Shown one piece after another: positions 22,124 through 34,364 of a stretch of DNA of 43,809 bases. The stretch spans positions 1 to 43,809 of the forward strand of contig CAZQSC010000001.1 of the NCBI GenBank assembly GCA_964595705.1. Reading direction: 5' to 3'. The position numbers were made by a program, and so were the translations under genes. The notes under the pieces were generated by a model, which saw only the letters and a list, made by a program, of their open reading frames with translations, was not told where the DNA came from and ran no database searches. The DNA is from an uncultured bacterium. Lineage in GTDB: Bacteria; Latescibacterota; MVCY01. Each line of letters begins with the position of its first letter. Position 1 is the stretch's first letter.

Positions 22124-23500
22124 CTACTCCTTCTTCTCTCCTACCTCACCCGATTCTGCAGCCTTTTGAACTATATCTTCCACTTTCACCGAGAGGTCCT
22201 TCACAATGTTATCTTTAACCAAGAAGACAGTAGGGCTTTGTTTCGTTTTAACATATACTAAGTCACCCTTTTTCTTACCCAGCAAAAGTTCCACTACTGG
22301 ATTTTCATCTTTCCAGAGTCTGGCTATGATCTGTGGCTTATCCAGTCCGTATTTGGAAAGCCTTCCGGGTTTTTCTGTCACGAACTGCTGGGCTTTCAGT
22401 CCCTTGATATCCCACAACATACCGCTGATCTTCCAATCTTTTGCCTTCCTCTCTACCGGCTGGTTCAACTGCCAGCTTCCGGAGGTATCTTTAACGCAGA
22501 GGATGGTAGTATCCGGGTAGATAAGTTCCAGTTTATTAATTTCCTTTACCTCAAATTCAGCTACAGTCTTGTCCCGCAGGTCGAAAGGTGTTTTTCGTAA
22601 CTGTTTAACTAAGTCTGCTCCAACCAAGAAGACGGGACTGCGGGATTCATCCCAGGCATAGTAGTTCTCGCCCTTCTTGTCGCCGATTCGGAGCAGTTTC
22701 CTCGCCTTATCCTCTCCCACCCAGAGGGTGACCTCCACCTGGGGTTTGTGCAACCCATATTTTCTGAGGCTCTCCGGCTTCTCGTCCACGAATTCCTTGG
22801 CCTTGGCATTTTTCAGTCTGCTCAAAAGCCTCTCTATCTCATTCTTGTCTGCCTTCGTCTTAAGCGGTTTCTCCATTTGCCACTGGGGGCCCATCTGAGT
22901 GCAGACTATCCGCTGTCGCCCTTGGGCAAGTTCCAGTTTCCTAACCTCTGCCTTGTCAAAGGCAAGCACCCTTTTGTCTCGCAGGTCGTAAACGGTCTTC
23001 TCCAGTGAACTCAACAACCAGGAACGGAGGGTAAAAACCTGGGGGCGAGAGCTCTTCTGAGCAAAGACAAAATCACCGGTAGGGCTTCTGTCACCTAACA
23101 GAAGGGTGTCGGTGGTGCCTTTTTCTAAGTCTAAATACACTTTCACATTGGGATACAGAAGGCCAAACTCCGAGAGATTGGCAGCGCTGTCGGCCACCAC
23201 CTGCTCGGCCTTTGCACCCTCTAAGTTGCTAACAATTCTGTCTATTGCATCTTTATCTCCCTCAGTCTCAATGGGGTAGATCAGTCTCCAATCACCGTCG
23301 GGCTTTTTCGCACAGACTATTTTCTTCTCAGGATAAATCAAGGTTAATTTCTGCACATCCTCCTTTGAGAAGAGAAAGACCTTTTGTTCTGCCTCCTTCT
23401 GCTTCTTCATCTCTGCCGGACGCCGGACTTCATACAACCAGACATAAAGCCCTAAGGCCACCAGCACACCAGCCAGAATAGCAGTGGTTTTAAACTTCAT
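22124..23500 (-). CDS. DUF4340 domain-containing protein (membrane-anchored, three internal repeats)
   Basis: 458 aa with the N-terminal anchor TAILAGVLVALGLYVWLY. Three repeats share the pattern KL(T/E)LIYP....I.C.K...G.W.L..P...(K/E)AD......(L/I)...L...KA..FV. The position downstream of a GldG-like gene is the usual context for DUF4340. Confidence 0.8.
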   Translation of the reverse strand: MKFKTTAILAGVLVALGLYVWLYEVRRPAEMKKQKEAEQKVFLFSKEDVQKLTLIYPEKKIVCAKKPDGDWRLIYPIETEGDKDAIDRIVSNLEGAKAEQVVADSAANLSEFGLLYPNVKVYLDLEKGTTDTLLLGDRSPTGDFVFAQKSSRPQVFTLRSWLLSSLEKTVYDLRDKRVLAFDKAEVRKLELAQGRQRIVCTQMGPQWQMEKPLKTKADKNEIERLLSRLKNAKAKEFVDEKPESLRKYGLHKPQVEVTLWVGEDKARKLLRIGDKKGENYYAWDESRSPVFLVGADLVKQLRKTPFDLRDKTVAEFEVKEINKLELIYPDTTILCVKDTSGSWQLNQPVERKAKDWKISGMLWDIKGLKAQQFVTEKPGRLSKYGLDKPQIIARLWKDENPVVELLLGKKKGDLVYVKTKQSPTVFLVKDNIVKDLSVKVEDIVQKAAESGEVGEKKE

Positions 23501-23686
23501 TTCTTCCTTCTCCTGTTGTTAAAGTTAGTCTTAAATTAATCTTTTTCAAATTTAACTGCAAAGCCCCCAAAGAAGAGGCAAAGTTCGCTAAGCTTGTTTT
23601 CTTTCGGCTTGTTGACTAACTTCTCACCCCCAATGCCTTGCTTTTTTGGCGTCTCCTCTGCGATCTTTACAGCTAAATCTTCCTTC

Positions 23687-25228
23687 CTATCTTTTTCTTC
23701 TCCACCAGATGCTGACGCCGGTGATTAACACGGCAGCGGGGTAGATTATCAGCACCAACCAGAAGATGGTTTTGGCTTGGTTCTTGGTAAGTTGCAGGGG
23801 GTTAAATTCGGGACTTTTGGGCCGGATGGAGATAAGCTCTTCCTCCTCGGTCAGCCAGTTGATGCAGTTGAGGAACAGGTCCCCGTTGGCCTGCTGCTTG
23901 AAGAACTGGTTGTCAGCAAAGTCAGAATCTCCAAAGACCACCAGACGGGTTTTCCCCTTGGTAGCCCCTGTAGCTTTGGGCTCCCCACTGACAGCAACAG
24001 CCAGAGAGACGGGCCCTTTCTTGTCGGTCTTGGGGTCGAATCTGGGTACTTTGGCCTTCGCCTTCACAGGGGCCAGATCCGTCTCTGCCCAGCTCTGGGG
24101 CGAAGTCTTGGCCAATTCTGTCCCCTGCACTCCCCCCTTGCTCTGTTTCGACAGCGAAACCGACCGGGCCAGGGGATAGAAGCTCATCACTCTGAGATCT
24201 TTGGTAATGGGGTGATTTCCATAAATAGAGATTATGGGCATAGCGTAGCTAACCCCGAACAGGCTTCCTATGCCGCTGGCATCTACTACAAAGTCATTGC
24301 CGACCACGATCCCCCAGGAGGCGGCTATCCCTTCCAGGCCGGAGTAGACCCCTGGGTCCAGAAGGAAAAATGCCTTGCCTCCCCCATCCAGATAGTCTCG
24401 GATCATAGACAATTCCTTCACCAAATACTCTTTCTGGGGGCCAGCAGCAACCAGCAGGGAGCAGTCCTCAGGCACCTTATCCTTCTCTGCCAGAAGTAGG
24501 CTCTTAGGCTCGTAGTTGTTGTTCTTCAGCTCATCCCTGACCACACTGTAGCCTTCCCGGCCGGTGTCATCGAGCTCCTTCTCTCCATGTCCCTTAAGGA
24601 AATAGACCACCTTCTTCTCCTCTTTGCTCACCTTTAGAATGGCACTGGTGAGCTTCTTCTCGGTGGCCTTGCCAGTGAACCTCTCCTCACGGGTTCCGGA
24701 CTCAACCACTACAGTCTCATACTCCTTAATACCATATCGCCTTGCTTTCTCCGGACTTCTGTCTGGATCGACAAACTCGAAGGATACCTTACGTGAACGT
24801 GACCGGTAGCTTTCCAAAAGGTCCTTAAGCCTCTGTCCCCGGGCCTGCCGGTAAAAGGCAATGACCTTCACATCCCGGTTTAAGTTCTTCAGCACCTTAA
24901 TTGTCTGATCCGAAAGGCTGTAAATTTTAACCTTGGTGGTATCAAAGACCCAATGATGGCGCGTGCCGATGAAATTAACCAGCACAACTATCGCTAATAC
25001 AACGACTACCATAAGGATGGCATTTGTACCGTACTGGGTAGACCTCCGGCCCCAGAATTTTTTTACTATATCGAAACCTAAGGAGAAAAAGACGACCAAG
25101 AGGAGAAGGCCTCCAATTAAGGGTATACCCACTTTTAGATTGAATGACGGGGCGAGAGCAAGAAGAATCAGTCCAACCAGCAGTAATCCGGCCCCTACTA
25201 AACCGTAGATAGGCAGATATCTTCTCAT
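23687..25228 (-). CDS. GldG-like auxiliary component of an ABC-2 'gliding-motility-type' transporter
   Basis: I moved the start to ATG 25228 (GGAGGTG SD 5 nt upstream; the ORF track starts at TTG 25255). N-terminal TM segments and the C-terminal TM IFWLVLIIYPAAVLITGVSIWW flank a large periplasmic domain, as in GldG. Confidence 0.8.
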   Translation of the reverse strand: MRRYLPIYGLVGAGLLLVGLILLALAPSFNLKVGIPLIGGLLLLVVFFSLGFDIVKKFWGRRSTQYGTNAILMVVVVLAIVVLVNFIGTRHHWVFDTTKVKIYSLSDQTIKVLKNLNRDVKVIAFYRQARGQRLKDLLESYRSRSRKVSFEFVDPDRSPEKARRYGIKEYETVVVESGTREERFTGKATEKKLTSAILKVSKEEKKVVYFLKGHGEKELDDTGREGYSVVRDELKNNNYEPKSLLLAEKDKVPEDCSLLVAAGPQKEYLVKELSMIRDYLDGGGKAFFLLDPGVYSGLEGIAASWGIVVGNDFVVDASGIGSLFGVSYAMPIISIYGNHPITKDLRVMSFYPLARSVSLSKQSKGGVQGTELAKTSPQSWAETDLAPVKAKAKVPRFDPKTDKKGPVSLAVAVSGEPKATGATKGKTRLVVFGDSDFADNQFFKQQANGDLFLNCINWLTEEEELISIRPKSPEFNPLQLTKNQAKTIFWLVLIIYPAAVLITGVSIWWRRKR

Positions 25229-25232
25229 TTGC

Positions 25233-26009
25233 TCACCTCCATCTCTGGGATTCAATCACCTTAACAGTTAAAAAGAGGAAGAATGTTATGAAACTCAGGT
25301 AAAAAACGACATCCTGGGTGTCGATCACCCCTTTTTCAAACGGGAGCATATGGGTGAGGATAGAGAGATAGGAGAAGATCTTCCCGGCGCCAGGGCGGGT
25401 GAAGATAGAGGCTGAGCCGATCACCCAGAAGAGCAACAGGGCGCCAAATCCCAGAACTACAGCGATAATCTGACTCTCGGTGAGCGATGAGGCAAAGATG
25501 CCCACAGCAATAAAGGCTGCCCCCATCAGAAGCACCCCCAAATAGCCCGAAAGCACCGGCCCCCAGTCCGGATGGCCATAGGCTCCCAGTATAATTTGGT
25601 AAAGCACAGTTAAACCTATGATGATAGCATACAAGGCAAAACAAGCAAAGAACTTGCCCAGCAGAGTCTCGGTTATCCGCACCGGAGAGGTCATCAAAAG
25701 CTCCATCGTTCCCGCCCTCTTCTCCTCGGCGTAAAGCCTCATAGTGAGCATAGGAATGATGAACAAAGAGATGAAACTGATAAGCCCGAACATCCCTCTT
25801 ATCACCTGCTGGTTGAGATTCAGAGAGGGCATTCCCCCATAGCGAGATGCATATTGCATATAGTAGAGACACTCATTGCTGAATGTGACGGTCATCCCAT
25901 AAAAGAAATAGCCAGTTATGACAAGAAAAACTGCTGCCAGCACATAGGCAATGGGGGAGGTGAAGTATGTTTTGAGCTCTTTCTGAAATATGGCGGCGAT
26001 ATTCCTCAT
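25233..26009 (-). CDS. ABC-2 type transporter permease (GldF-like)
   Basis: 258 aa with about 6 TM segments. The N-terminal FQKELKTYFTSPIAYVLAAVFL is typical of ABC-2 permeases. It overlaps the ATPase gene by 4 nt. Confidence 0.85.
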   Translation of the reverse strand: MRNIAAIFQKELKTYFTSPIAYVLAAVFLVITGYFFYGMTVTFSNECLYYMQYASRYGGMPSLNLNQQVIRGMFGLISFISLFIIPMLTMRLYAEEKRAGTMELLMTSPVRITETLLGKFFACFALYAIIIGLTVLYQIILGAYGHPDWGPVLSGYLGVLLMGAAFIAVGIFASSLTESQIIAVVLGFGALLLFWVIGSASIFTRPGAGKIFSYLSILTHMLPFEKGVIDTQDVVFYLSFITFFLFLTVKVIESQRWR

Positions 26010-26950
26010 CCTTCTGCCTCCTCTGTAGTTAGCTGTAAGAATATCTCCTCTAAGCTTAACCCAACGCGTCTTATCTCCAACAGTCCAAATCCGCTACTGG
26101 TAATTGCTGCGGCCAATTGCGACCTGATGTCTGTCTTCACTTCACTCTCTACAAAGAAACCGTTCCTCTGTCCATTGCCCCCAGGCTCTATGCTAACGGC
26201 TGTGACCTGGGGGATCTGTTTGATCTTCTGCTCCACCTGATCAACAGGTCCTTCCACCTCTACATAGATTCTTTCGGAGCCTTTCAGGCGGGCGGTGAGA
26301 TTCTCAGGGGTGTCTACAGCAGCGATCCTGCCCTTATTGATAATGACCACCCTCTGACAGGTGACACTTACCTCCGGCAGGATGTGGGTGCTGAGGATGA
26401 TGGTGTGCTCTCCTCCTAACTCTTTGATCAACTGGCGAACCTCGATTATCTGCCGGGGGTCAAGTCCTATGGTAGGCTCATCTAAGATTAACACCTCCGG
26501 GTCGTGGATTAGGGCCTGAGCCAGTCCCACTCTCTGTTTATAGCCCCGGGAGAGTTTGCCGATAATGGTCTCCTTCACCTCCTGGAGGCCGCATTTCTCC
26601 ATCGCTGCCTCTGCCCTGCTTCTCTGCTGTTTGGGCTCGATGCCCTTTATCTTTGCGTTGAACTCCAGGAAATACCTGACAGTCATATCGTTGTAAAGCG
26701 GTGGGTTCTCAGGCAGGTAGCCTATTCTTTTTCTCACCTCCAGGGAGTCGGTGAAGACATCGTATCCGGCCACCCGGGCGGTGCCTGCCGAGGCGGGCAG
26801 GAAGCAGGTTAGAATGCGCATAGTGGTGGTCTTGCCCGCACCGTTGGGCCCCAGGAATCCGAGTATCTCCCCCTTTTCTACTCGAAAGGATATGTCGTCC
26901 ACCGCCCTTGTTCTGCCGAAATATTTGGTGAGATGTTCAACCTCTATCAA
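26006..26950 (-). CDS. ABC transporter ATP-binding protein (GldA-like)
   Basis: TTG start with an AAGGAGG SD 7 nt upstream. Walker A GPNGAGKTT, signature LSRGYKQRV and Walker B LILDEPT are present. Confidence 0.9.
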   Translation of the reverse strand: MIEVEHLTKYFGRTRAVDDISFRVEKGEILGFLGPNGAGKTTTMRILTCFLPASAGTARVAGYDVFTDSLEVRKRIGYLPENPPLYNDMTVRYFLEFNAKIKGIEPKQQRSRAEAAMEKCGLQEVKETIIGKLSRGYKQRVGLAQALIHDPEVLILDEPTIGLDPRQIIEVRQLIKELGGEHTIILSTHILPEVSVTCQRVVIINKGRIAAVDTPENLTARLKGSERIYVEVEGPVDQVEQKIKQIPQVTAVSIEPGGNGQRNGFFVESEVKTDIRSQLAAAITSSGFGLLEIRRVGLSLEEIFLQLTTEEAEG

Positions 26951-27217: not shown

Positions 27218-28474
27218 TCACTCCAGAACCTCCCTCGGGTCAGAGATCTCCCCTCTCGTGGCCGAATAGGCCGCAGTGGCAGGAGAGCAAAGATAGATGA
27301 ACCCCTTGGGATTGCCCATCCTACCCTTGAAGTTCCGGTTAGCAGTGGAAAGGCAGACCTCGCCATCTGCCAGCACCCCCTGATGCACCCCCACACAGGG
27401 GCCACAGCCTGGAGGAAGCACCGAGGCCCCCGCCGCCACAAAGACATCCAACAACCCCTCCCGCAGAGCATCTAAATAGACTCGCCGAGAGGCAGGACAG
27501 ACAATAAGCCTGGTGCCAGGATGGCAGGTTCTACCTTTGAGAACCTCAGCCACTACCCTCAGGTCCTCCAACCGCCCATTGGTGCAGGTGCCAATAAATA
27601 CTTGATCCACCCTTGTTCCCACCGCCTCCGAGACAGGCTTGGTGTTGTCCACCTGATGGGGGAAACAGATCTGCGGCACCAGTTCAGAGATATTAATCTC
27701 CACAATTCTCTCATACCGGGCATCGGGGTCGGCAGCTATGGGGCTGAAGTCGTCGGCCCTTCCCTGCTCCTCCAGATACTGGCGGGTCACCTCATCGGCC
27801 CCGACCAGGCCTGTCTTGGCACCTGTCTCCACTGCCATATTCGCCAGGGTAAGCCTTTCAGCCATAGACATCCTCTCTACAGTCTCCCCGTCCAGCTCTA
27901 AGGCCTTGTAGGTGGCACCGTCAGCGCCGAGTGTGCCGATAAGGTAGAGAATCAGATCCTTGGCGTAGACACCTGAGGGAAAGGCCCCGGAGACAACTAT
28001 TTTAAAGCTTTCTGGCACCTTAAGCCAGACCTTCCCCAGGGCCACAGCCACCGCTACATCAGTAGAGCCCATCCCGGTGGCAAATGCCCCTAAGGCCCCG
28101 GCGGTGCAAGTGTGGGAGTCAGCTCCGATTATTATGTCTCCCGGACGGGCGTAAGATTCGCTCACAATCTGATGACATACCCCTTGTCCCACATCGGAAA
28201 GCAGAGCGCCTGTCTTCTGAGCGAACTGCCTCAGAGTAACGTGATCATTGGAGAGTTCACGGCGGGGGCTGGGAGCAGCATGGTCGATAAACAGGACCGT
28301 CCGCTCAGGATGGGCCACTCTCCTGGGTCCCATCTGCTCCAGCTCTCTGACTGCCAGGGGACCGGTGCCGTCCTGGAGGAAACAGAGGTCCACATCGGCT
28401 ATCACGAACTCCCCTGCCCTCACTTGCCGCCCGCAATGTCGACTGATAATCTTCTCAGCTAAGGTCATCCCCAC
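27218..28474 (-). CDS. aconitase-family dehydratase large subunit (3-isopropylmalate dehydratase / homoaconitase LeuC/HacA type)
   Basis: 418 aa. MTLAEKI, GADSHTCTAGALGAFA, IGTCTNGRLEDL and PGCGPCVG are the Fe-S cluster and substrate motifs of the short LeuC/HacA type. GTG 28474 or ATG 28468 overlaps the upstream gene end. There is no small-subunit gene in the window. Confidence 0.85.
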   Translation of the reverse strand: MGMTLAEKIISRHCGRQVRAGEFVIADVDLCFLQDGTGPLAVRELEQMGPRRVAHPERTVLFIDHAAPSPRRELSNDHVTLRQFAQKTGALLSDVGQGVCHQIVSESYARPGDIIIGADSHTCTAGALGAFATGMGSTDVAVAVALGKVWLKVPESFKIVVSGAFPSGVYAKDLILYLIGTLGADGATYKALELDGETVERMSMAERLTLANMAVETGAKTGLVGADEVTRQYLEEQGRADDFSPIAADPDARYERIVEINISELVPQICFPHQVDNTKPVSEAVGTRVDQVFIGTCTNGRLEDLRVVAEVLKGRTCHPGTRLIVCPASRRVYLDALREGLLDVFVAAGASVLPPGCGPCVGVHQGVLADGEVCLSTANRNFKGRMGNPKGFIYLCSPATAAYSATRGEISDPREVLE

Positions 28475-30302
28475 GGCTCTGCTCCTCTAGTTTAACCAGA
28501 TCTTCAAACTTAAGGTCGAACTCCAGCACTCCGATTATCTCTTCGTCCTGGTCTCTAATCGGGGCAGAGACGGTGATGCATAGGGCTCCTGTGACGGCTG
28601 AGGTGTAAAGTCCCGTCACATAAGTCCTCCCGCTCTTCAGCGGCCCGATAAACCACTCCCGGTCGGAGAAATCATCCCCAATGCGGTGGTATTCGTATTT
28701 TGCTTTATCCACCGGTTGAGTGATATTTCTGGTAACCCTTCTGCCTTCTTTATCAGTGACGGCTATCAACTGTACATAAGGATTCTCTTCGATCACCTTG
28801 GTTAAGAGGGGTTCCTGTTGGGATGGGTCCATTGAACGGATAGCAGGCAGATTCACAACCTCTTCGATAAGCTCCTGGGCCAGCAGACGGGCGTGTGCCT
28901 TTATCCGGTCAAAGTCTGAGATAAACAACTCTGGCAGATATTTCTTCGCCTTCTCCACCATCTCCTCGGTAGAGATACTGGTGACTCTGCCCTCTCTGTA
29001 TTGATCCATCACCCAGTGGTAGATTTTACCTACTCCTGGGTGTCTCTTATCAATCACTCTCTCCCCGGTCAGTTTGAAGTGAGAGTTAATCCAGTAGGCA
29101 ATACCAGCAGTGCCGGATTTGTCGGTGACCATAACTCCAGGAGGCCGATTCAGGATCTTAGTAGTGTCAAAGATATTGTATATCTCCTCATTTTTGCTGA
29201 TCCCGTCGGCGTGGATGCCGGCCCTGGTGAAATTAAACTCTGACCCCACAAAAGGATAGTTAGCAGGGATTGAGGCTTTGACCTCGTTTCTGAAGTAGTC
29301 GGCGATCTCGGTGATCACGGTGGTATCCACTCCGTTGGTCTCGCCCTGCAGGGCGATATATTCGATAATCAGCCCCTCGATAGGGGGATTGCCGCATCTT
29401 TCTCCGAAGCCCAGGAGTGTCCCGTTGGCAGCGGCACAGCCGTGGAGCCAGGCAGCCTCGCTGTTAATCAGGGCCTTGTGGAAATCGTTGTGCCCATGCC
29501 ACTCCAAGGCATAAGAGGGAACACCAGCCTCATGAATCATAGCGTGCACCATCTTAGGGATGCCCCGAGGCAGGGCTGCCTCCGGGTAGGGAAGGCCATA
29601 TCCCATAGTGTCACAAAGTCTTATCTTAATTGGCGGGCCTCCTAATGCCTCCTCCCCCACCTCCTCGTAAATCCTCATCAACTGCTGGGCAAAGGGGATG
29701 ATAAAGCCGGGGAAATCGGCCCTGGTGATGTCTTCCATGTGGCATCTTATCCGCACCCCGGCATCCATTGCCTCTTTTACAATGGCTAAATAAACCTCTA
29801 AGGCGGTTTCTCTGTCCATACCCAGTTTAAGAAAGATATGGTAGTCAGAGGCAGAGGTGAGCACCCCTGTCTCTTTCAGCCCCATCTGTTTTACCAGTTG
29901 AAAATCGGACTTCACTGCCCTTATCCATCCAGTAACCTCTGGATATTTATATCCCCTTTCCAGGCATTGTTGTACTGCCTCTTTGTCCCCGTGGCTGTAA
30001 AGAAAGAATTCGCACTGTCGGATCACACCTTGGGGGCCACCCAGTCGGTGTAGCATGTCGTAGAGATCCACTATTTGCTTAACCGTGTAAGGAGGCCTGG
30101 CCTGTTGACCATCCCTGAAGGTGGTACAGGTTATCCATATCTCATCCGGCAGCTCCACAGGTACTATCACATTGTCAAAAACCATACGGGGCACTTCTGT
30201 GTAGGGGAAGATATCCCTGAACAGGTTGGGCTGTTCTACATCTTCAATCTGGTATTTTGGCCGTTGTGGTTTTATAAGTTTTGATATCCCCATTTTTGGC
30301 AA
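28455..30302 (-). CDS. HMGL-like Claisen-condensing enzyme (LeuA/NifV/Re-citrate-synthase-like) fused to a C-terminal Cache-like ligand-binding domain
   Basis: The N-terminal roughly 475 aa carry NLFRDIFPY, IWITCTTFRDGQQ, EFFLYS, SDYHIFLKL, HMEDITRADF, LCDTMGYG, EWHGHNDF and GERCGN. The last 139 aa (nt 28458-28874) carry the Cache-type pattern SDREWF...G.TYVTGLYTSAVTGALCITVSAPIRD.DEEIIGVLEFDL. An alternative start is ATG 30293. Confidence 0.75.
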   Translation of the reverse strand: MPKMGISKLIKPQRPKYQIEDVEQPNLFRDIFPYTEVPRMVFDNVIVPVELPDEIWITCTTFRDGQQARPPYTVKQIVDLYDMLHRLGGPQGVIRQCEFFLYSHGDKEAVQQCLERGYKYPEVTGWIRAVKSDFQLVKQMGLKETGVLTSASDYHIFLKLGMDRETALEVYLAIVKEAMDAGVRIRCHMEDITRADFPGFIIPFAQQLMRIYEEVGEEALGGPPIKIRLCDTMGYGLPYPEAALPRGIPKMVHAMIHEAGVPSYALEWHGHNDFHKALINSEAAWLHGCAAANGTLLGFGERCGNPPIEGLIIEYIALQGETNGVDTTVITEIADYFRNEVKASIPANYPFVGSEFNFTRAGIHADGISKNEEIYNIFDTTKILNRPPGVMVTDKSGTAGIAYWINSHFKLTGERVIDKRHPGVGKIYHWVMDQYREGRVTSISTEEMVEKAKKYLPELFISDFDRIKAHARLLAQELIEEVVNLPAIRSMDPSQQEPLLTKVIEENPYVQLIAVTDKEGRRVTRNITQPVDKAKYEYHRIGDDFSDREWFIGPLKSGRTYVTGLYTSAVTGALCITVSAPIRDQDEEIIGVLEFDLKFEDLVKLEEQSRGDDLS

Positions 30303-30454
30303 ACTCTCCTTTCGAATTTAGAAGACATTGTCAAAAATTTAACCAGAGAGAACGCAGAGAAAAATCCTATATTAGATCCCTCCGCGCACTCCACACCTCT
30401 CTGTGCTCCCTGTGGTCTGTTTCATCCAATTTTTGATACTTTCGGTCAGGTTTG

Positions 30455-32128: not shown

Positions 32129-32800
32129 CTAAAACCTAGCAGTCTGTCTGCTTTCACCCTTGTAAAATCTTTCAACTGTGGCCACCACCTCTTCAGGGGT
32201 ATCCACGACGGTAAATATTTTCATATCTCTCTTGGATATATATCCTCTATCTAAGCAAATCTTCTGCAGCCAGTTCAAAAGTCCATCCCAGTATTCTCTG
32301 CCCAACAGGATCACCGGGAAGCTTTCGATTCTCTTGGTCTGGATTAAGGTTACGGCCTCGAACAGCTCATCCATGGTGCCAAAACCGCCAGGCATTATCA
32401 CAAACGCCTTAGCGTATTTGACGAACATAACCTTGCGACAGAAAAAATAGCGGAACTCCAGAAGAGTAGTTATAAAGCGATTGCTCTTTTGTTGAGATGG
32501 AATAATAATGTTAAGTCCCACGGAGGTCCCTCCGGCCTCTTTGGCCCCCTTGTTGGCCGCCTCCATAATCCCCGGACCGCCCCCAGTGATCACCCCATAG
32601 CCGGCCCTAACCAGCAGTGAGGCGGTCTGTTCGGCTAACCGGTAATACCTGTCTCCCCGTTTAGCCTTGGAAGAGCCAAATATGGAAACCGCCGGTCCAA
32701 TCTTGGAAAGCGTCTCAAATCCCTCCACAAACTCGGCCATTATCCGAAATACCCGCCAGGTGTCCTCTCCTGTGAAACCAAGTTCAGTCCTCTCCGCCAT
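32129..32800 (-). CDS. LOG-family (TIGR00730-type) Rossmann-fold nucleotide-binding protein
   Basis: I moved the start to ATG 32800 (GGAGG SD 5 nt upstream). GGGPGIMEAANKGA and the PGGFGTMDELFE motifs are diagnostic of LOG/lysine-decarboxylase-like proteins. Confidence 0.85.
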   Translation of the reverse strand: MAERTELGFTGEDTWRVFRIMAEFVEGFETLSKIGPAVSIFGSSKAKRGDRYYRLAEQTASLLVRAGYGVITGGGPGIMEAANKGAKEAGGTSVGLNIIIPSQQKSNRFITTLLEFRYFFCRKVMFVKYAKAFVIMPGGFGTMDELFEAVTLIQTKRIESFPVILLGREYWDGLLNWLQKICLDRGYISKRDMKIFTVVDTPEEVVATVERFYKGESRQTARF

Positions 32801-32825
32801 ACCGGCCTCCGTTCTCTGATGCTTT

Positions 32826-34364
32826 TCACTGCAGCCCATACTTCTGAATCTTGCGATAAAGGGTTCGCTCTCCTATCCCTAACATCTTGGCTGCCTTTTT
32901 CTTATTCCCTCGGGTTTCTCTTAGTGCCTTTCGAATCATCTCTTTCTCCATCTCAGCAATCGGTTTTAACTCCCCGGCATCGGTCTGAGCTACCTCTTTA
33001 ATCTCTCTTTCCCCGACCTCCCCAACTTCGGATACAAAGGGCACCTCATAGGGATTTATAGGGATGGGTTTGGTAACTCTTTGTCCTTCCAGGAGGAATT
33101 TCTTGATCTCTGCCACATCCTCTCTCAGGGCCAGCAGGCTGCGATAGATTAGCTCTCGTTCAGACTGGTCCGGGGTTTTCTGTACCCTTACAGGCAGAAG
33201 GCGACTGAAGGACGGCCCTTGCTCCAGGTAATCTTTGAAATATCGAGGGATATCATCGGCAGTTATCTTCCTCTTGGGAGACAGAGCTACCATACTCTCC
33301 ACCAGGTTTTTAAGCTCTCTTATATTTCCAGGCCAGGGATAGCGCATAAGCAGTTGCATCGCGTCTTCGGATATACCGGGGAAGCTGATCTTATGTTCTT
33401 CGCAGTAGCTGCGCACAAAGGCATCCACTAACAGAGGGATATCCTCTCTCCTCTCTCGCAGAGGGGGCACATATATCTCAAAGACCTTCAGACGGTAGTA
33501 GAGGTCCTGGCGAAAATTGCCTTCCCTGACTGCGGCGGCTAAGTCACGGTTGGTGGCGGCGATCACTCTGACATCCACCTTTACGGTCTCTGTGCCTCCG
33601 ACACGGCGCAGCTCCCTCTGCTCCAACACCCGCAGGAATCTGACCTGTGTGGCCGGCGACATCTCTCCGATCTCATCCAAAAATATGCTCCCCCCCTCAG
33701 CAGCCTCAAAAACACCTTTATGTCGGGCAACCGCCCCAGTGAAGGCACCTCTTTCGTGCCCGAAGAGCTCGCTCTCTAAAACTCCTTCTGCCAGCGCCCC
33801 GCAGTCGACAGCCAGAAAAGCCCTAGCCTTGCGTCTGCTGTGGTTATGAATTGCCCTTGCTATTAGCTCCTTGCCTGTACCTGTCTCTCCGGTGATAAGG
33901 ACGGTTATCTCGGTGGGGGCAATCTGGATAATGGCTTCCAGGACCTGCTTCATCTGCTCGGACTTCCCTACCAGTCCGGACTCCAGCGAGACCCTCTTTC
34001 GCACCTGTGCCCTGCCCACAACCTCTGCCAGTTCGTGCCGATCAATGGGCTTCTCTAAGATGGCATCGACCTCCATCCGAACGGCTGAGGCTTCCCCCTT
34101 GGGGCACAACAACACCAGGGTGCCCCAGTAACGGCCATCCTTAAGTCGCTCTGAAATCTGCACCAGCTCCGCCTCTGGAATCGAGGCATCAGCCACTACA
34201 ACATCAACAGGGTTGTGCTGAAGAAAATCGACTGCTGCCTTCCCATCGTCTGCTGCTACCCACTCCCAATGCCCTTCCCCTGAAACGGCGAAGATCGCCT
34301 CTTGGACTTCTTCGTCTAAACCCACCAGCAGAAGATTGAGCTTCTCATCCAATTGAGCAATCAC
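32826..34364 (-). CDS. sigma-54-dependent transcriptional activator (receiver-like N-terminus, AAA+ core, Fis-type HTH)
   Basis: GETGTGKELIARAIH (Walker A), ESELFGHERGAFTGA (GAFTGA loop), VRVIAATNRDL, and the C-terminal KKKAAKMLGIGERTLYRKIQKYGL. The start is uncertain (GTG 34364 or a downstream TTG). Confidence 0.9.
   Translation of the reverse strand: MIAQLDEKLNLLLVGLDEEVQEAIFAVSGEGHWEWVAADDGKAAVDFLQHNPVDVVVADASIPEAELVQISERLKDGRYWGTLVLLCPKGEASAVRMEVDAILEKPIDRHELAEVVGRAQVRKRVSLESGLVGKSEQMKQVLEAIIQIAPTEITVLITGETGTGKELIARAIHNHSRRKARAFLAVDCGALAEGVLESELFGHERGAFTGAVARHKGVFEAAEGGSIFLDEIGEMSPATQVRFLRVLEQRELRRVGGTETVKVDVRVIAATNRDLAAAVREGNFRQDLYYRLKVFEIYVPPLRERREDIPLLVDAFVRSYCEEHKISFPGISEDAMQLLMRYPWPGNIRELKNLVESMVALSPKRKITADDIPRYFKDYLEQGPSFSRLLPVRVQKTPDQSERELIYRSLLALREDVAEIKKFLLEGQRVTKPIPINPYEVPFVSEVGEVGEREIKEVAQTDAGELKPIAEMEKEMIRKALRETRGNKKKAAKMLGIGERTLYRKIQKYGLQ

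Follow-up and report, generated by a model that had tools for sequence, protein, structure and literature searches.

A predicted long-form Re-citrate synthase with a cytoplasmic Cache module in an uncultured Latescibacterota bacterium

We analyzed a 43,809-nucleotide stretch of DNA (hereafter the window; contig CAZQSC010000001.1 of GenBank assembly GCA_964595705.1) from an uncultured bacterium of the Latescibacterota, focusing on a reverse-strand gene whose product joins an HMGL-like DRE-TIM metallolyase domain to a C-terminal tail similar to Cache sensor domains. An earlier note, written from the sequence alone, had assigned this protein (hereafter the window synthase) to the Re-citrate synthase clade and had proposed that its tail provides a new allosteric input. 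The mechanical open reading frame (ORF) at 28455-30302 (-) is free of stops over 615 amino acids from a TTG at 30302, and its translation, P0001, provides the residue numbering used throughout. The ATG at 30293 is most likely the true start rather than this TTG, because an AAGGAG motif precedes it by 12 nt and because P0002, a homolog sharing 95% identity with the window synthase, is also 612 amino acids long. The gene and its parts are as follows:

28455..30293, reverse strand: gene of the Re-citrate synthase clade, with ATG at 30293, encoding 612 amino acids plus stop
30306..30311, reverse strand: Shine-Dalgarno-like AAGGAG, read directly from the sequence
29298..30134, reverse strand: HMGL-like DRE-TIM catalytic barrel, residues 57-335 (Pfam)
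28938..29297, reverse strand: post-barrel subdomains and linker, residues 336-455 (NifV, LeuA and CimA models; weak HCS_D2 match)
28485..28937, reverse strand: predicted single, cytoplasmic Cache/PDC module, residues 456-606 (Pfam, profile against PDB, AF2, Foldseek)
28515..28661, reverse strand: conserved stretch of putative pocket residues R548, W550, F551, Y566, S568 and D596 (columns in 65 homologs; alignment to PctA, Tlp3 and KinD)

The motifs quoted in the earlier note are all present, namely NLFRDIFPY (position 26), TTFRDGQQ (60), EFFLYS (98), EDITRADF (190) and EWHGHNDF (267), and Pfam recognizes the HMGL-like domain at residues 57-335 with 104.5 bits. The barrel carries R63-D64 within TTFRDGQQ and the HxH pair H269/H271 within EWHGHNDF. 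These R-D and HxH motifs, the catalytic fold and the post-barrel subdomains are common to LeuA, CimA and homocitrate synthase, with which the window synthase would also share the logic of a C-terminal regulatory domain acting on a committed step. It differs from these enzymes in that it lacks the LeuA_dimer domain (PF08502), for which no Pfam match was obtained even at E <= 1, and in that it remains below every curated cut-off. The NCBIfam models for LeuA, CimA, NifV and the lysine-pathway homocitrate synthase all match the catalytic part far below these thresholds, the best score being that of NifV (123.6 bits versus a cut-off of 462.9), and the NifV, LeuA and CimA models can be aligned as far as about residues 407-438. 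The absence of a LeuA-type regulatory domain, already proposed from the sequence, was therefore confirmed at the level of Pfam. Neither a transmembrane (TM) segment, searched by Kyte-Doolittle averaging over 19-residue windows, nor a signal peptide was detected; since no 19-residue mean exceeds 1.37 and the N-terminus is polar, the protein is predicted to be soluble and cytoplasmic, in agreement with the earlier note.

The two characterised Re-citrate synthases, SYN_02536 of Syntrophus aciditrophicus and CKL_0973 of Clostridium kluyveri, have their sequences printed in Table S1 of PMC12016533. An N-terminal FPY as well as EFFLY[ST], EDITRAD and EWHGHND are common to both enzymes and to the window synthase, which upholds the proposed clade assignment. 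A chain of identity leads through the tail-less proteins of Kuenenia/Brocadiaceae, 63% identical to the window catalytic domain, to the Clostridium enzyme, with which the K. stuttgartiensis homolog shares 55.1% identity (PMC8027424). SYN_02536 has the same architecture as the window synthase, an HMGL-like catalytic domain followed by a C-terminal Cache module, and its tail, which contains SDREWF, Y-x-S, TGALC and G-x-x-x-D in this order, displays the same pocket residues (in SDREWF, Y-x-S and G-x-x-x-D), with 32 of 59 positions identical to window residues 546-604. CKL_0973 shares the catalytic domain and the clade motifs with the window synthase; it is devoid of the Cache module and ends at the domain boundary, right after the linker helix. 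The S. aciditrophicus enzyme was reportedly described by Kim et al. in 2013 as a homotetramer with a subunit of 72.9 kDa, active without added effectors, and the C. kluyveri Re-citrate synthase is said to have been reported by Li et al. in 2007. Proteins from Syntrophales are approximately 58-60% identical to the window synthase over their full length. Those of Syntrophus reach 629 amino acids owing to a C-terminal extension of about 20 residues that the 612-residue window synthase does not possess, and the latter belongs to another subclade, among relatives from Omnitrophota, Armatimonadota and Auribacterota. We conclude from these comparisons that the window gene is by sequence an ordinary member of its family, encoding a Re-citrate synthase (EC 2.3.3.3 type) in its common long form, and we infer oxaloacetate to be its substrate.

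The C-terminal tail of the window synthase matches two Pfam families above their cut-offs: MCP-like_PDC_1 (PF22673) at residues 497-602 (55.7 bits versus 27) and dCache_1 (PF02743) at residues 478-602 (49.9 bits versus 45), the latter over profile positions 32-155 of 240. In order to build a family profile, residues 440-615 were aligned with 64 homologous tails that are 26-62% identical to the window tail (alignment A1, 65 sequences). When used against the PDB, this profile retrieved the dCache_1 sensor domains of Tlp3 (E = 8e-11), KinD, PctA, PctC and PctB. A full-length AF2 prediction without alignment reached a pLDDT of 40 only and was unusable; it was replaced by a model of the tail alone with A1 as input (pLDDT 91.5, pTM 0.83), in which a long N-terminal helix or helices precede a PDC-type sheet. 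Foldseek found 169 PDB matches to this model at E <= 0.001, the top ones listed being Cache/PDC-type sensor domains with KinD in first position, followed by Tlp3, Mlp24, PctA/PctC, DcuS, CitA and DctB; the cytoplasmic C-terminal domain of YkuI was also among the matches. A homodimer prediction of the tail scored 0.01 and was returned as "no answer", and a feature search with the tail from which HMGL clusters were excluded yielded family fragments and generic PDC-sensor or YkuI_C-like clusters, with no lead to a ligand.

Profile and model together identify the tail as a genuine Cache/PDC module. The fold proposed in the earlier note was thereby confirmed, and the tail aligns to Cache sensors, not to LeuA_dimer. 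As regards its extent, the C-terminal position of the module was correct and the 139 residues initially delimited proved slightly short, the module covering approximately residues 456-606 (about 150 amino acids) when its N-terminal helix is included. One such module is found rather than the double-module arrangement of dCache domains, and it corresponds to the membrane-distal half of a dCache_1 domain. The PDC fold and the R-x-W, Y and D pocket positions are shared with the membrane-distal dCache_1 modules of PctA, Tlp3, Mlp24 and KinD. In contrast to these chemoreceptor and kinase domains, the window tail is single, predicted to be cytoplasmic, without flanking TM helices, fused to an enzyme instead of a transducer, and without an equivalent of PctA Y121. 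The extracytoplasmic placement between TM helices that is usual for the Cache family is not found here, and the window tail is on this prediction a cytoplasmic exception within the Cache superfamily.

Conservation within A1 is concentrated in a few columns. W550, S568, L574 and D596 are invariant in all 65 sequences, and F551 (64/65), T571 (63/65), T577 (63/65), G558 (60/65) and R548 (59/65) are nearly so, while position 566 is occupied by Y in 53 and by F in 7 of the 65 tails. The best-conserved columns of the tail are thus pocket positions and not surface or helix positions, as judged from the sequence alignment to PctA, Tlp3 and KinD, from which the pocket was assigned rather than from model coordinates. 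As a reference we used the five-residue AA_motif of dCache_1AA domains (YxxxxRxWY...; PMC8915833) in PctA numbering. Profile alignment pairs four residues of the window synthase with PctA as follows:

R548, aligned with PctA R126, which contacts the ligand carboxylate
W550, aligned with PctA W128, which contacts the ligand carboxylate
Y566, aligned with PctA Y144, which contacts the ligand amino group
D596, aligned with PctA D173, which contacts the ligand amino group and is essential for binding

Four of the five motif residues are therefore matched, and the spacings (W+16 to Y, Y+30 to D) fall inside the published ranges. The first one, PctA Y121, is replaced by D543 in the window synthase, and the equivalent column holds E in 27, Y in 9 and D in 6 of the 65 tails. 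Since this residue is missing, we do not file the tail as dCache_1AA and only consider that it resembles dCache_1AA. Two further positions distinguish the family from PctA, where Y129 is replaced by Phe and D146 by Ser.

From these residues, an amino acid such as glutamate appears a more likely ligand than a plain oxo-acid. The tail could alternatively sense a carboxylic acid without amino group (pyruvate, 2-oxoglutarate, citrate or similar) and exert feed-forward or product control. The top Foldseek match, the sensor domain of Bacillus subtilis KinD, was crystallised with pyruvate, and DcuS, CitA and DctB also figure among the matches. The family Y566-x-S568 is found as Y-S-S in KinD and corresponds to Y-V-D in PctA, and the amino-acid motif is incomplete at the Y121 position. 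Against such a ligand stands D596, which is invariant and corresponds to the PctA aspartate whose loss abolishes binding, whereas KinD has an Ala in this very column. We consider sensing of a non-amino acid to be rather unlikely. A specific version of the amino-acid proposal, in which glutamate or another 2-oxoglutarate-derived amino acid would be bound through R548, W550, Y566 and D596 and would feedback-inhibit the enzyme, is put forward as a tentative possibility.

The fusion of synthase and Cache module is not special to the window locus. Among more than 8000 clusters (90% identity), the 120 best all correspond to proteins of about 600 amino acids with PF00682, PF02743 and PF22673, and they are spread over many anaerobic phyla. 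Species-representative genomes contain at least 594 stretches that code for a relative, and the counts and labels of related loci given here refer to the best 80 of them. Most of these 80 relatives are full length with a Cache tail, and their labels comprise Nitrospirota, Omnitrophota, Armatimonadota, Syntrophales, Syntrophobacterales, Syntrophorhabdales, Desulfobacterales, Desulfovibrionaceae (Desulfovibrio, Bilophila, Mailhella), Spirochaetales, Lentisphaerae, Elusimicrobia and Termititenax. By sequence, the Cache fusion predominates throughout a large clade, and the S. aciditrophicus enzyme that was purified earlier has it as well. The novelty of the fusion implied by the earlier note could not be maintained; its "new allosteric input" is a reasonable idea about what appears to be an old and widespread domain.

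Catalytic domains were placed in a quick maximum-likelihood tree with the LeuA and CimA of the host metagenome-assembled genome (MAG) as root and without SYN_02536 and CKL_0973; it groups all 40 tail-bearing rows together with the Kuenenia candidates in one clade with 98% SH-aLRT support, apart from LeuA and CimA. Tail-less forms (Kuenenia/Brocadiaceae, Auribacterota and one Omnitrophota) as well as a receiver-domain fusion are nested within this clade, so that on this tree the tail must have been gained or lost at least four times. The simplest reading would be one early gain followed by several losses. The tail is dispensable for catalysis, because it was repeatedly lost and because the clostridial enzyme is active without it. 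These losses, during which the enzyme itself was kept, and the reported activity of the homotetrameric S. aciditrophicus enzyme without added effectors would speak for a tail that is a ligand-free structural or oligomerisation module (building the tetramer, for example) with no regulatory input. We regard this explanation as improbable given that the most conserved tail columns are canonical ligand-pocket positions and not positions of the surface or the helix.

Other domains are found fused to related catalytic domains. Three independent clusters (P0122, P0285 and P0286) of about 600 amino acids carry an N-terminal response-regulator receiver domain and no Cache tail, their catalytic domains being 60-62% identical to that of the window synthase; this suggests that citrate synthesis may be controlled by phosphorylation in some uncultured bacteria. 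More distant members of the HMGL branch (P0146, P0181 and P0149) have other C-terminal additions, either a weak ACT-like region below the Pfam cut-off or an ATP-grasp/L-amino-acid-ligase module (833 amino acids). It is to be noted that NCBI names proteins of the clade "histone-lysine N-methyltransferase" with or without tail (P0003, P0006, P0128, P0273, P0281), which looks like a propagated misannotation, as none of the domains found supports this name; JGI labels these proteins as "isopropylmalate/homocitrate/citramalate synthase" or "citrate (Re)-synthase". Tail-bearing synthases of the Desulfovibrio type or of a basal type also occur under unexpected labels, Odoribacter splanchnicus for L078 and Nanoarchaeota archaeon for P0128, which could be due to bin contamination or gene transfer.

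The host MAG (2.6 Mb, 321 contigs, 91% complete) contains three HMGL-like genes. One is a true LeuA located beside ilvC (828 bits versus an equivalog cut-off of 532), another is a true CimA, or citramalate synthase (747 bits versus 450), and the third is the window synthase. No match to Si-type citrate synthase (PF00285) was obtained in this 91%-complete MAG, and an aconitase of AcnA or AcnB type was not found in it either. Two large subunits of LeuC/HacA type are present, one of them directly downstream of the window synthase:

27218..28474, reverse strand: large subunit of the aconitase/HacA family, overlapping at its start by 14-20 nt with the 3' end of the synthase gene

The extent of this overlap depends on whether the dehydratase starts at GTG 28474 or at ATG 28468, and because of it the two genes are probably co-transcribed. 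Among the 80 related loci, an aconitase-family large subunit lies directly downstream in 7, and four Desulfovibrio-type loci have a more distant aconitase-family gene 1-2.4 kb downstream. A LeuD-like small subunit is encoded near the second large subunit, on contig C3. We also observed an orphan LeuD/HacB-like small subunit of 166 amino acids (G000 contig C3, L008:1375-1875 (+)), right after an acetate kinase gene and far from the large subunits, which is likely to be the partner of the large subunit at 27218-28474. Elsewhere in the MAG, an NADP-isocitrate dehydrogenase above its equivalog cut-off adjoins malate dehydrogenase. Since this dehydrogenase is present and neither Si-citrate synthase nor AcnA/AcnB was found, the synthase/dehydratase pair is the only visible route to isocitrate. 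This context fits citrate synthesis for the oxidative branch leading to 2-oxoglutarate and glutamate.

The downstream dehydratase also exceeds the threshold of TIGR01343, a family model for homoaconitate hydratase. Together with NifV, a homocitrate synthase, being the best NCBIfam match of the window synthase, although far below its cut-off, this could indicate that the catalytic domain is a homocitrate synthase or another 2-oxoacid-elongating synthase partnered with the adjacent HacA-like dehydratase. We deem this very improbable, as the clade signature and the chain of identity lead to the two characterised Re-citrate synthases and as the pair occupies the only visible path to isocitrate in this MAG.

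Four genes downstream of the dehydratase (22124-26950 (-)) encode an ABC ATPase, an ABC-2 permease, an ABC_transp_aux/DUF7088 protein and a DUF4340 protein; this cluster is not kept beside the synthase in the 80 related loci, in which the flanking panB and ABC transporter are not conserved neighbours. Upstream of the synthase, at a distance of a few kb, a gene of the LOG family ("lysine decarboxylase-like") at 32129-32839 (-) is overlapped by a sigma-54-dependent response regulator at 32826-34364 (-), the latter with a weak, sub-cut-off receiver match followed by AAA+ and a Fis-type helix-turn-helix domain. No link between this pair (32129-34364) and the synthase was seen.

Many strict anaerobes, among them sulfate reducers, syntrophs, Nitrospirota and Omnitrophota, enter glutamate synthesis through Re-citrate synthase. 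In the mechanism that we propose, the DRE-TIM metallolyase domain would condense acetyl-CoA with oxaloacetate to give citrate, which the aconitase-family dehydratase, presumed to be co-transcribed, and the NADP-isocitrate dehydrogenase would convert into 2-oxoglutarate, mainly for glutamate synthesis. The soluble Cache/PDC module would stand in place of the LeuA-type regulatory domain. For the ligand, the direction of its effect and the path of its transmission, we infer the following: the pocket would bind a small carboxylate-bearing molecule, with an amino acid (for instance glutamate) or a closely related metabolite as the most likely candidate, and its occupancy would be relayed through the long N-terminal Cache helix to the post-barrel subdomains covering the active site. 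This relay would tune the committed condensation by analogy with the end-product control of LeuA by Leu, of CimA by Ile and of homocitrate synthase by Lys. The pocket residues make allosteric control through an amino-acid-like ligand plausible.

Taken as a whole, we consider it probable that the window gene encodes a long-form Re-citrate synthase whose ligand-sensing Cache tail tunes its committed step, and the presence of other signal-type domains (receiver, weak ACT-like) in clade relatives also counts in favour of this proposal. Several observations weigh against it. The best fold match, KinD, binds pyruvate and not an amino acid, and the first residue of the amino-acid motif is lost. The tail has disappeared repeatedly (Kuenenia, Auribacterota, some Omnitrophota), and the C. 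kluyveri enzyme is active without one. The lack of Si-citrate synthase was deduced from a MAG that is split into 321 contigs. Finally, our literature search found no test of a ligand or of a regulatory role of the tail in any member, nor any publication on Re-citrate synthase regulation.

In most members of the Re-citrate synthase family, the tail is a domain known elsewhere as an extracellular sensor of chemoreceptors, and its pocket is strongly conserved; a ligand of this pocket would concern the whole family and not the window locus in particular. Binding of a ligand by the tail would reveal how carbon entry into the oxidative branch of the tricarboxylic acid cycle is controlled in such anaerobes and would extend the Cache repertoire by a cytoplasmic output linked to an enzyme. 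If the tail indeed binds glutamate or another 2-oxoglutarate-derived amino acid and thereby feedback-inhibits the synthase, this would be the first Cache domain shown in direct control of a metabolic enzyme, and within this branch of the superfamily the Cache module would functionally replace the regulatory domain of LeuA.

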